Shown here piece after piece: positions 4,749-44,150 of a stretch of DNA of 64,000 bases. Every line of letters begins with the position of its first letter. Position 1 is the stretch's first letter. Source of the DNA: Octopus vulgaris (lineage: Eukaryota); NCBI GenBank assembly GCA_951406725.2, contig OX597814.1, forward strand, positions 103,540,001 through 103,604,000. Reading direction: 5' to 3'. The position numbers and the translations under genes were made by a program. The notes below the pieces were generated by a model. That model made no database searches, had not been told where the DNA came from, and saw only the letters and a list, made by a program, of their open reading frames with translations.

Positions 4749-4826
4749 GCGGCTGAAGAAGGCCACAGACATACATTATGCATTGTTATAAATCTGTCTA
4801 ATAAAGGCCCGAAACATATGTACCGC
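4749..4826 (+). ncRNA. Type I hammerhead ribozyme motif (C3:G8), palindromic stem III
   Basis: GCGG-CTGAAGA-a-GGCC...GGCC-c-GAAA-CATATG-TA-CCGC; near the end of the PLE pseudo-LTR. Confidence 0.8.
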
Positions 4827-5171
4827 TGAATCCTTCGCATCATGTTTTTATTTTATTTTGATCAATATATATATATATATATATACACACATAATTAAAG
4901 GATAAAATCATTAAAATTAATGAATTTTATCATTGTCTAGCATATAAAAAAATAACCTTTTGGGTAAAATTCATATATAGAGAGGTATAGTTGTATAGAA
5001 TACAATTATAATTAAGAGCACAGAAGCTACCATGCCTATATGCTGTAAATAGGCGCCATATATATATATATGTTTGTGTTTATGTATATTTCTGTATGTA
5101 TGTATATATATATGCATTGCATATGTACATGTATGTATATATGTGTGTATATATACATGTACATGTATATA

Positions 5172-5492
5172 GGCACGTGGATTAGTGGTTAGGGTATTCG
5201 GCTCACGATTGTAAGGTCGTGAGTTCGATTCCCGGCGACTCGTTGTGTCCTTGAGCAAGACACTTTATTTCATGTTGCTCCAGTTTGGCTCAACTACCAA
5301 AAATGAGTTGTACTTGTATTTCAAAGGCCCGGCCTTGTCACACTTTGTGTCACGCTGAATCTCCCTGAGAACTACGTTAGGTGTACGCGTGTCTGTGGAT
5401 TGCTCAGTCACTTGCACGTTAATTTCATGAGAAGGCTGTTCCGTTGATTGTATCAGCTGCGACCCTCGTCGTCGTAACCGACGGAGTGCTCC
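5172..5492 (+). mobile_element. tRNA-derived SINE with CORE-like central domain
   Basis: A box (tggattagtggt), B box (gagttcgattcc), tgtgtccttgagcaagacact core; relatives at 23155, 44241 and 46905. Confidence 0.8.
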
Positions 5493-5995
5493 TATATATA
5501 TATGTATGTATATATATATATATATATACATGTATGTATATATATGTATATATATACGTATATATACATACACACATATGTATGTATGCATATATATGTA
5601 TTATGTATATATATATATATATGTGTGTGTGTGCGAGTATGTGTAAGTGTGAATGCGTGTGTGTGAGTGTGAATGTGTGTGTGCATATGTATGTATGTAT
5701 GTATGTATGTATATATATATATATATATATATATATATATATATATATATATATATATATATATATATATATATATATATATATATATATATATATATAT
5801 ATATATATATATCTTTAGTTAAATATATTCAATGAGAATATATACTGAATTTATATTGAGTGCTGTATTGTATCAAAGTATTAATACTACTAACGCATTT
5901 ATGTATTTAATACGAGCGATTATATATATTTTATATAATATATTATTATTCATATCAGGAAATCAATATTAGAAAATTCTTCAGAAAGATATATA

Positions 5996-7260
5996 CGAGG
6001 GACGTTCAATAAGTAATGCTTCTGACCCACTTGCAGTTGTTTGATCTAGCTGAAATGTGCAATCATTTATATCTCTATAGAGTAAGTGGCAAATTACAGC
6101 TCTGAATTAATTGTGGTTTCTGATTTACAGGTGTTTGAACCGAGTCAAGTGTGAAATGGAGCATGTTGAGTGTCGAGCAGTGATCCGGTTTTTGTATTTG
6201 AAAGGACGCACACCACGGGAGGCTTTTGATGAAATGACAGTAACTTATGGTGATGATGCCCCATCATATGACCTTGTAAAACGCTGGCATCGTGAATTCA
6301 AACATGGTCGGAACTCTGTGGAAACAGCTCCCAGATCTGGTCGCCCCCTTCTGCCATTGATGAGGCATCTGTCCGTCAAGTTGAGGCTGCATAATTATTC
6401 GCCAAATATCCCATGAGGTCAAGATTAGTACCGGGTCTGTGGAAACTATCATTCATGACCATTTGCATATGCAAACGGTGTCTGCCAGATGGATTCCCAG
6501 GTTGATCACGCCTTTCCAGAAGCAAGAACGCGTCGAGTGCTCGAGGGTGAATTTGGACATGTGCCAAGAAGATGAGTCAAAATTTTTCAAAAGACTGATT
6601 ACACAGGATGGAACCTGGGTCCATCACGATGATCCAGAGACCAAAGCCCAGTCAATGCAGTGGAAGCACCGTGACTTACCCCCTCCAAAGAAGGCAAGGG
6701 TGCAGCCCTCCGCTGGCAAGGTCATGCTCACAGTCTTCTGGGACCAGGACGGAGTAGTGATGACAGATTTCGTGGCAAAGGGTACCACAATTGCAGGAGC
6801 CTATTATGCTTCACTTTTGAGGAAATTAAGAGAAGTTATCAAAATCAAGAGGCAGGGCAAGATCAGCAAAGGCATCCTCCTCCTGCAGGACAACGCTCCG
6901 GTCCACAACTCGCGTGTCGCCAGATCAGAAGCACAGGCGTATGGCTATGAACTCCTCCCCATCCCCCCTACTTTCCTGACCTTGCACCCTCTGATTTTCA
7001 CCTCTTCCCAATCATGAAGTTGTTTTTTGAAAGGAAAGCGTTTCCCAGATGATGAAGCCTTGATTTCTGAAGTCACGTTCAGGTTGGAGGACCAAGCTGG
7101 GTTCTTCTACAAAAACGGTCTCCAGAGCCGCATCAAACGATGGGAGAAATGCGTAACTCTGGGTGGTTCCTATGTAGAAAAAGACTAATAACTGTGCCCA
7201 GTTTCGTTGCTCTACTGCTATGGAAGTGGGTCAGGGGCATTACTTATTGAACGCCCCTCG
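5996..7260 (+). mobile_element. Mariner DNA transposon, full length, decayed
   Basis: ~37 bp TIRs (cgagggacgttcaataagtaatgc... / ...gcattacttattgaacgcccctcg); TA duplication at 5994-5995 and 7261-7262. Confidence 0.95.
6156..7188 (+). pseudogene. Mariner DD34D transposase, frameshifted
   Basis: HTH region MEHVECRAVIRFLYLKG..RSGRP; ARWIPR, ITQDGTW, QDNAPVH, PDLAPSDFHLF across several frames. Confidence 0.92.
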
Positions 7261-42000: not shown

Positions 42001-43105
42001 AGAAGACGCTTGACCATTCTGGGTATATTACAAATGGAACAGAATCTTTATATAATCATTTCATAGGACATGAAATAAATCATGAATTAGCGACTTGATG
42101 TCTGGATTTCGACTTTCGAATTTCGCAGACGATATAGAAATTCTTTCTGTTTCATTCTCATTAAAACTATTCCCATTGAATAAATTGATTTCTTGTCTGA
42201 CCTTCCTTTTTGATGTTTTATTTTGATATTTATATAACATTTGAAAAAATCATTTCATTTGAAATATGGGCGCATACGAGAAAGGGTTATAATGTTGAAA
42301 TAGAAATTAAAATGATCTCGAAGCAAATGAGAATAGCCTCATAGCAAATTTATATAATCACGAACAAAATTAAAGGATGAGACACGTGGGATGGAAGAGT
42401 CGTTGAAGAGGTCACAGGTGTGTGACGAAAGGATTCCAGTCATTGGACATAAGATAAAATAATAATAATAATAAACGAGTGAAGAACGAACGTATAGTGC
42501 GAGTGTTTATTTGGCAAGAAAAAAAAGAGAAAAAAAACGACCATCCTGAAATTAAACAATAATTGCTTCAACACACGAGTTTACATCAGGAATCCTGCAA
42601 AACAAATTCATAAACGTAAAAATTAAAAAGTAATTACTTAAAACAGAGTAAGATTTTGAATGGTTTTATCTTAAATGTGACGATATATCATCGTCGTTTA
42701 ACCGAGGTCTCCAATACAGCGTTTAATTATGAATGACAAAAATCAGTCGCAAAGCTGAGAGACTACAAAATCTCGTATTTCACAAAGTTTCACACAGAGA
42801 AGCAAGCGGGGAGCCTTACAAGAAATCTACGCTTAAAATTCCTTTTTTGTGTACAATTTGTCGCTGAAAGAGAAGATTGAGAATCCTTTATTACAGTACT
42901 TGGTGTAGTAATGAAGACAACGGCATATATTTGGTAATCAGGAGTTGTACAACATAATGGCTGAGTGCCTGCGATATGTCTTACATGCTATTGAGAAAGA
43001 CCTAAATATTATTTTGCCTAGCCCTGAATATCATTCTGTGAGAAGTAAAAGCGAAGTTGATATTACATTAAAGAGTAGGGCTGCCAGCTGACAGAATCTT
43101 TATCA

Positions 43106-43529
43106 CATCAATAAGGCGGCGAGCTGGCAGAATCGTTAGCACGCCGGGCGAAATGCTTAGCGGTATTTCGTCTGCCGTTACGTTCTGAGTTCAAATTCCG
43201 CCGAGGTCGACTTTGCCTTTCATCCTTTCGGGGTCGATTAAATAAGTACCAGTTACGCACTGGGGTCGATATAATCGACTTAATCCGTTTGTCTGTCCTT
43301 GTTTGTCCTCTCTGTGTTTAGCCCCTTGTGGGTAGTAAAGAAATAGGTATTTCGTCTGCCGTTACGTTCTGAATTCAAATTCCGCCGAGGTCGACTTTGC
43401 CTGTCATCCTTTCGCGGTCGATAAATTAAGTACCAGTTACGCACTGGGGTCGATGTAATCAACTTAATCCGTGTGTCTGTCCTTGTTTGTCCCCTCTGTG
43501 TTTAGCCCCTTGTAGGCAATAAAGAAATA
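43106..43529 (+). mobile_element. Meta-domain SINE with ~180 bp internal tandem duplication, nested in an older SINE of the same family (~43078-43690)
   Basis: 13 bp TSD agaatctttatca at 43093-43105 and 43530-43542; ggtatttcgtctgcc..aaagaaata occurs twice. Confidence 0.82.
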
Positions 43530-43742
43530 AGAATCTTTATCATAAATTTCGTCGCGGTCGACTTCGCCTTTCATTCTTTCGGGGTTGATGAAATAAGGAC
43601 CAGTTGAGCAGTGGGGTCGATATGATCGACTTGCCCCACCCCAAAACCGAAATTGTTGGCCTTTGGCCTTGTGCTTAAAATTATAACCAATATTATTAAA
43701 CATTTTTCTAAAATCTCCAATAGCATCCCAGGAAATTAGAGA

Positions 43743-44150
43743 AAATATCTAGAGAAAATATTAAGCAAAAATTTCAAAAAAATATATTGAGATTTCATTA
43801 AAAATCATTTTTGTTTGGATGTATCTATATATACATGCATGATTTTTAATAAAATCCCAATATATTTTTTTGAAATTTTTATTTAATATTTTCTCTAGAT
43901 ATTTCCTTGTAAACTGTTTTTAACATTTTCTTATTATTATCAAAGAACATATATATGTACTTTAATATTTTGTGACAACCAGTACTTAACACAACAAAGC
44001 TTATACAAAGCTTTTACATTTTACGTTTGACAATCTTTTTCTAAAAAAGTGAAACCGGTCAAGTAAATAAACATCTTTAAAATTGCATTTTGAAACCTTC
44101 TTTCATATATATTTCCATTCGTGCGGTACCTTACAATTTCACTTTGCTAT
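43743..44150 (+). mobile_element. Older PLE-end remnant related to 8697-13412, with short 5' inversion
   Basis: 44020-44145 aligns with 13320-13410 plus the tail; 43743-43809 is inverted relative to 43839-43904. Confidence 0.75.
44021..44066 (+). ncRNA. Minimal hammerhead motif, U3:A8 variant, GUC site
   Basis: TTACGT-TTGACAA-t-CTTTTT..AAAAAG-t-GAAA-CCGG-TC-AAGTAA. Confidence 0.62.

Follow-up and report, generated by a model that had tools for sequence, protein, structure and literature searches.

Hammerhead-shaped motifs in octopus Penelope-like elements, likely selected ribozymes with four matched forms of the 3:8 pair

Can a natural hammerhead ribozyme exchange the pair between positions 3 and 8 of its core for other matched pairs? 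The question is raised by a stretch of 64,000 nucleotides from Octopus vulgaris (assembly GCA_951406725.2, contig OX597814.1, positions 103,540,001 to 103,604,000, forward strand; hereafter the window), which carries hammerhead-shaped motifs with three forms of that pair in DNA of 37% GC, abundant in microsatellites and retroelement fragments. By structure and place, these motifs are minimal hammerheads of Penelope-like elements (PLEs). We assign a probability of roughly 0.78 to the reading that they are minimal type I hammerhead structures at PLE 3' ends, predicted from their sequence to cut RNA, likely in dimeric form, and that a Watson-Crick 3:8 pair, whatever its identity, is likely maintained in them by selection. 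Thousands of such motifs occur in the jumping genes of the octopus genome and, since their 3:8 pair is seen in all four matching forms, they are likely selected, if still putative, ribozymes.

Hammerhead motifs of the window and their elements

All eight type I hammerhead-shaped motifs listed in a first-pass annotation of the window are present where it placed them, its coordinates marking stem I. The type I core (N3-U4-G5-A6-N7-N8-A9 with 3:8 paired; G12-A13-A14, A15.1-U16.1 and H17) is found in 8/8 motifs, and the 3:8 pair is non-canonical in five of them. Named by the start of the core (N3), the motifs with C3:G8 are 4753 and 7563 (CUGAAGA, both plus strand) and 14851 (CUGAUGA, plus), those with U3:A8 are 8060 (UUGAAAA, minus) and 8815, 13329 and 44027 (UUGACAA; minus, plus and plus), and 14570 (GUGAACA, plus) has G3:C8. 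The palindromic stem III claimed for all of them, compatible together with loop 3 with a dimer, is seen as CATATG, CGATCG, CCGG or ATAT, the 14851 motif being only near-palindromic. Also, a (TA)n tract lies 78-329 nt downstream of all eight cores.

The 4753 motif (4749-4826, plus strand) matches the hammerhead descriptor and has a long loop II, an A.C opposition at the opening of stem II and the CATATG stem III. It sits on an inverted, 5'-truncated copy of a Hydra-type PLE (1689-3572, minus strand), whose likewise 5'-truncated open reading frame (ORF) encodes a reverse transcriptase (RT) plus, at its C-terminus, a GIY-YIG domain, with inverted arms at 1-939/3559-4497; its CxCX5C linker agrees with the description of Hydra PLEs (PMC8557442; this and the other papers are cited from the accessible parts of their text). 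Just beyond the left edge of the window, the minus strand carries a twin of this motif (L031:9745).

The 8815 (8779-8819, minus) and 13329 (13325-13365, plus) motifs are inverted copies from the same element and flank a Neptune-type PLE fragment with a CxxxxCxxC linker, a GIY-YIG domain and a broken frame (10794-11242, minus), 8815 lying in its 3' pseudo-long terminal repeat (pLTR). In the 13329 family, where stem II opens with U.U, 40/40 of the copies scored agree at 100% along 141 nt, and longer copies (L237 and L239) encode RT and GIY-YIG. The 44027 motif (44020-44067, plus) is a diverged relative with one stem I mismatch. The 8060 motif (8029-8067, minus; stem III CCGG), with a stem II of only 1 bp (8-nt G..C linker), represents a solo 3' end, in fold-back form, from a Neptune-type PLE family that lies 3' of Neptune-type GIY-YIG ORFs; a decayed, inverted ninth copy stands at 8124-8160 (plus), with GAAA changed to CAAA. 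The 14570 motif (14563-14612, plus), with an extra G after A9 at the opening of a 5-bp stem II and with stem III ATAT, lies inside a solo pLTR of fold-back form (~14380-14696). The PLE family concerned is young, comes from a distant clade and has a protein at most ~25% identical to the Neptune-type proteins over long stretches. This family (1311 candidates, the top 40 at 90-100% identity) lies 3' of an RT and GIY-YIG ORF (PF01541, E 4.8e-5).

The remaining two motifs belong to families with no PLE protein match upstream (12 + 12 loci, 1.5 kb flanks): 7563 (7559-7648, plus; stem III CGATCG) has a point change in stem I, while other copies pass the descriptor in 11/11 cases, and 14851 (14848-14919, plus) has a 3-bp stem I and a stem III, CCGGCTCCGG, that becomes a perfect palindrome in some copies. 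The proposal that each motif is near a PLE-like end is thus borne out by an ORF link for four families (4753, 8815/13329/44027, 8060 and 14570) and lacks such a link for 7563 and 14851. Five window families, searched genome-wide, gave 775-1455 first-look candidates each.

Four window families (4753, 8815/13329, 8060 and 14570), as well as the A:U and G:C families described below, have the motif in the 3' pLTR of an RT and GIY-YIG element, in tandem or inverted. In every ORF-linked family GIY-YIG is C-terminal to RT, which is the PLE type already known to bear hammerheads; the N-terminal GIY-YIG of the Naiad/Chlamys arrangement was not encountered in them. The Neptune-type label of the clade is one that we presume from the linker. 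The CX2-5CxxC linker and the domain order are both present, the same linker being found in Nematis (PMC8557442).

Some side observations concern the smaller insertions. The 14851 motif lies in a ~430-nt unit (14742-15180) that is arranged head to tail in other loci, where no ORF was found, and whose back-joints appear in contigs of two runs; it is retrozyme-like, resembling a retrozyme or a solo pLTR. The insertions at 7910-8280 and 14380-14696 are short fold-backs, made of a pLTR and a longer-tailed inverted copy set in (TA)n, and they mimic miniature inverted-repeat transposable elements and miRNA hairpins (Rfam MIR matches below threshold).

A strict descriptor with positions 3 and 8 left free recovers 4/8 motifs and gives 0.03 matches per window in 60 dinucleotide shuffles. 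A relaxed one, which tolerates either a single mismatch in stem I or a stem II that is minimal, recovers 6/8, with zero palindromic matches in 30 window shuffles; the two that it misses are the weaker 7563 and 14851. An Rfam scan of the whole window showed no hammerhead among the top 150 of its 232 matches, and local scans (E<=10) covering 14570/14851, an A3:U8 copy and 4753 likewise found none. Since the canonical core of 4753 is missed too, the failure is not specific to swapped cores, and the Rfam models miss these PLE hammerhead forms whatever the core.

The 3:8 pair across the genome

The search was extended to the 2.8 Gb assembly (227 contigs) with tight patterns (short stem II, CCGG) that leave position 8 free, the pair states being tallied by hand over the first 100 matches. 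The pattern for bases other than U at position 3 gives 1474 matches vs 5 in the control, and the first 100 of the 1474 comprise 86 A:U, 5 G:C and 9 unpaired or wobble, with C:G at 0. With U3 (H17 = A/C) there are 2577 matches vs 1, of which the first 100 divide into 90 U:A and 10 U.G. The C3 pattern yields only 30 matches vs 1 (C:G 4, C.U 14, C.A 11, C.C 1), which, judged by their linkers, are mostly single-base decay of other families. For one sublineage there are 199 matches vs 0, and the first 100 of these are A:U in 84 cases and G:C in 11, the rest being A.C 2, A.G 2 and U.C 1, with G.U at 0. Therefore the Neptune-type clade, with its 1-2 bp stem II and CCGG stem III, contains amplified U3:A8, G3:C8 and A3:U8 families, with C3:G8 nearly absent (4 matches). 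The three Watson-Crick states previously described in the window are all real and understate the case, because the genome holds four.

Pieces of Neptune-type ORFs precede the A3:U8 and G3:C8 motifs. An A:U copy (L245) and a G:C copy (L205) are 93% identical over 330 nt, and their core, linker and stem III differ solely at positions 3 and 8. The rows of a looser, generic G3:C8 pattern also led to a second G3:C8 group, 8060-like in shape, with a 7-11 nt G..C linker and a CCGG stem III. An 8060-family copy changed to A3:U8 (L100:1740, plus strand; G000:C1:7828210) has a single match genome-wide and is not counted as a family.

As side observations, further U3:A8 hammerhead families with differing stems II and a CGCG, CCGG or CATG stem III occur at L092, L110, L188 and L249. 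A full-length Neptune-type copy at L210 contains, upstream of its RT part, a frame of 483 aa (minus strand, ~1129-2578), and its unit measures ~4 kb between the two hammerheads. Young Neptune-type subfamilies with a stem I junction shorter by one base are found at L162, L168, L172, L178, L183, L189, L210 and L211; both U3.G8 subfamilies fall in this set, one of them with near-intact long ORFs.

Such motifs are short, and the loose G3:C8 pattern is no commoner than its control (312 vs 364), as would be expected if they were chance matches in AT-rich repetitive DNA. However, the shuffled windows are nearly empty, the tight patterns far exceed their controls for the non-U3 and U3 forms (1474 vs 5 and 2577 vs 1), and within a family the motifs keep the same place behind PLE ORFs. 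The controls thus exclude a chance origin, to which we leave practically no probability. The pooled set of window and fetched loci (1.04 Mb, enriched by design) gives the same picture, with 157 of 164 distinct motifs with palindromic stem III being Watson-Crick at 3:8; its shuffles produce 0.23 Watson-Crick and 0.83 other matches per round (40 shuffles). By majority state, its 30 clusters are C:G in 18, U:A in 5, G:C in 3, A:U in 2 and U.G in 2, where one G:C singleton cluster and one U.G singleton look like chance.

The covariation expected of the pair was scored on 29 variants picked to span subfamilies. The 3:8 positions are paired in 29/29 (AU 12, UA 9, GC 7, UG 1), and their score of 0.68, which kinship among the variants inflates, compares with 0.20 after shuffling (0 of 500 shuffles reach it) and at most 0.18 with slid partners. 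Stem I is 88% paired, with double changes at 5/5 of its pairs. N7, H17 and the stem II linker are variable, H17 taking A, C or U among the variants aligned (as most patterns required), and stem II measures 1-2 bp in the main clade. The selected-ribozyme proposal of the first-pass annotation is supported in part, with high-copy families, four of them ORF-linked, and a 3:8 pair that covaries across families. Its statement that every change at position 3 is matched at position 8 is too strong as a general rule, given the amplified U3.G8 subfamilies.

Two protein trees (32 and 20 rows), rooted by choice on the 13329 family and computed after thinning near-duplicate rows, need 3 and 4 state changes; L134, whose ORF upstream is part of an adjacent U3:A8 element, was left out of the later trees, the noisy rows L200 (plus) and L178 were also left out, and L201 is absent from the DNA tree. 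Three clades appear in the trees: U.G is nested in the U:A one, another is A:U, and the G:C one includes a single A:U sublineage. They suggest that U3:A8 is ancestral in the Neptune-type group, followed by A3:U8, G3:C8 and U3.G8. As the 14570 family belongs to a distant clade, G3:C8 probably arose twice. The A:U sublineage is nested in G:C in the DNA tree (95/98) and in one protein tree (87/92); a reversal from G:C to A:U, favoured by the trees, is not claimed, monophyly of G:C not being rejected (AU p = 0.197).

So few independent events would suit neutral relics, that is, a few master copies mutated at both positions by luck and then amplified with the pair unselected, and the amplification of U3.G8 and slipped lineages points the same way. 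Nonetheless, only 4/16 base combinations are Watson-Crick, yet 28/30 clusters are so by majority, the other two being single U.G matches. Moreover, G3:C8 occurs in two clades with very dissimilar proteins, stem I covaries in the same lineages, and N3 and N8 are outside any DNA palindrome able to copy one from the other. We consider the neutral account quite improbable.

Comparison with known hammerheads

The U3:A8 state in PLE hammerheads is already known. Cervera & de la Pena 2014 (PMC4209133) reported it for the minimal hammerheads of Cercyon in S. mansoni, with ~1,300 matches, so this part of the finding is ordinary. The same paper states that a C3-G8 descriptor misses this form. The claim that searches for CUGAnGA overlook such motifs holds for thousands here and, for U3:A8, is not new. 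The Schistosoma and other metazoan PLE hammerheads in that work resemble those of the octopus in the pLTR site, the palindromic stem III, the extra base between 9 and 10.1, the opposite-strand pairs, the many families per genome and the U3:A8 state. However, the representatives in its Fig. S3 (n=56) are C3:G8 in 53 cases, U3:A8 in 2 and U3.G8 in 1; neither G3:C8 nor A3:U8 occurs among them and cephalopods are missing from the list, and helix II is long there vs 1-2 bp in the main clade here.

Natural core variants described by Perreault et al. 2011 (PMC3088659) share with the octopus motifs the U3/A8 covariation, the U10.1-U11.1 mismatch, a stem II of 1-2 bp and insertions that separate stem I from N3, although for 3:8 the accessible text names U3/A8 alone, unlike the G3:C8 and A3:U8 seen here. 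The hammerhead of the Poseidon element PAc of Anolis carolinensis (Frangieh et al. 2024, PMC11167929) also belongs to a PLE and cleaves only with its protein. In it an engineered C3G/G8C change partly rescues cleavage, so G3:C8 is an engineered state there, whereas it is the natural one of amplified families in the octopus. The non-LTR retrozymes (bioRxiv 10.64898/2026.07.22.740005) are non-coding, tandemly arranged units with type I hammerheads that stem from PLE pLTRs, and the 14851 unit resembles them; they were searched with canonical and minimal descriptors, with no mollusc in the accessible text, and differ from the swapped-core families, which sit behind ORFs.

The core-motif search of PMC8557442 used the strings 'cuganga' and 'gaaa', and its relaxed descriptors with core mismatches gave no further matches. 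As a side observation, the end of the Naiad consensus printed before Naiad_Ovul in its supplement shows, by eye, GAAA/stem III and CUGAUGA/stem I with their order rearranged and the pair being C3:G8. In some Naiads, hammerheads might therefore be concealed by topology, and not by the swapped cores that the first-pass annotation suggested for PLE families called hammerhead-free.

As to whether the variants were already catalogued, a natural G3:C8 or A3:U8 hammerhead was not found in the literature searched, whose coverage leaves out most subscription papers, so that absence is not proven; none surfaced in the accessible parts of PMC3884650, PMC6155905, PMC7151607, PMC6765202, PMC10085705, PMC11702757, PMC11014351 and PMC8495972. 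The amplified natural G3:C8 and A3:U8 families appear to be new variants, as does the occurrence of all four states within a single genome.

Predicted cleavage, damaged lineages and meaning

In tandem pLTR transcripts, the palindromic stems III (4-10 nt), expected to be stable solely as a dimer, would pair into one shared helix III. The resulting dimeric hammerhead, probably assisted by the protein of the element's ORF, would cut after H17, as we infer from PMC4209133, PMC11167929 and reviews. Following published hammerhead chemistry, the 3:8 pair would hold nucleotide 8 so that its 2'-OH serves catalysis; because the pair would only position this nucleotide, any matched pair could work, at a reduced rate. 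Lineages relaxed by a wobble or a slipped stem I may supply the route between pair states.

Several observations weigh against selected, cutting ribozymes. The stem I junction is one base short in 10/47 sampled U3:A8 copies and in both U3.G8 wobble subfamilies, one of which has ORFs of up to 775 aa, 95-96% identical to a U3:A8 sister. The amplification of these young subfamilies means that a damaged motif does not prevent spread, which fits the report that hammerhead mutants left PLE insertion in vitro unimpaired (PMC11167929). That work also found no RNA-seq reads ending at the PLE hammerhead cut site; in the octopus, four runs have contigs over the G3:C8 motif region, contigs being unable to reveal RNA ends. 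The minimal hammerheads of S. mansoni cleave weakly even as dimers (PMC4209133), and the self-duplex energy of stem III is -0.2 kcal/mol for ATAT (14570) vs -8.3 for CCGG. Furthermore, the invariant core, GAAA and CCGG columns of the 29-variant set were preset by the search patterns, the loose G3:C8 pattern shows no overall enrichment, and the copies are not independent events because the trees need so few state changes.

Part of this evidence, namely the insertion results and missing cut-site reads of PMC11167929, the low activity in PMC4209133 and the young slipped and wobble subfamilies, together with the reduced stem II of the main clade, would also suit a hammerhead fold kept for its structure while cutting barely or not at all, for instance as a signal to the element's protein for binding, dimerisation or packaging, with 3:8 selected for shape. 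Against this, the 3:8 pair belongs to the active conformation according to the reviews consulted, the aligned variants have A, C or U at H17 (though most patterns demanded it), and a PLE hammerhead cleaves with its protein and responds to 3:8 swaps (PMC11167929). Such a structural role seems unlikely to us, somewhat less so than neutral relics. Within the preferred reading of cutting dimers under selection, a bolder account falls a little short of even odds: one clade, nearly without stem II, would have moved 3:8 through U:A, A:U and G:C, possibly back to A:U and rarely to C:G, with the wobble lineages as the path, and A3:U8 and G3:C8 would be new active natural cores, dimer- or protein-assisted, in which pair geometry alone matters.

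Elsewhere in the window, a Mariner-type transposase remnant (PF01359) lies at 6000-7260, and many broken non-LTR retrotransposon RT fragments occupy 19300-32100 and 49300-57300, including a PF00078 match at 29273-30508 and a weak zf-RVT match at 56091-57263.

Finally, the 3:8 pair was established through engineered mutants, and the accessible literature shows C:G, U:A and one U.G in nature. The amplified A:U and G:C families, with their 93% identical sisters, offer a natural panel for relating catalytic rate to pair identity, which could also show how compensatory changes cross an inactive intermediate. Moreover, the young subfamilies with damaged motifs beside intact sisters allow a test of whether the mobility of PLEs depends on hammerhead cleavage. 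Descriptors for hammerheads ought to require pairing between positions 3 and 8 without fixing either base and, if the bolder account is true, censuses fixing CUGAnGA would undercount PLE ribozymes by thousands per genome.

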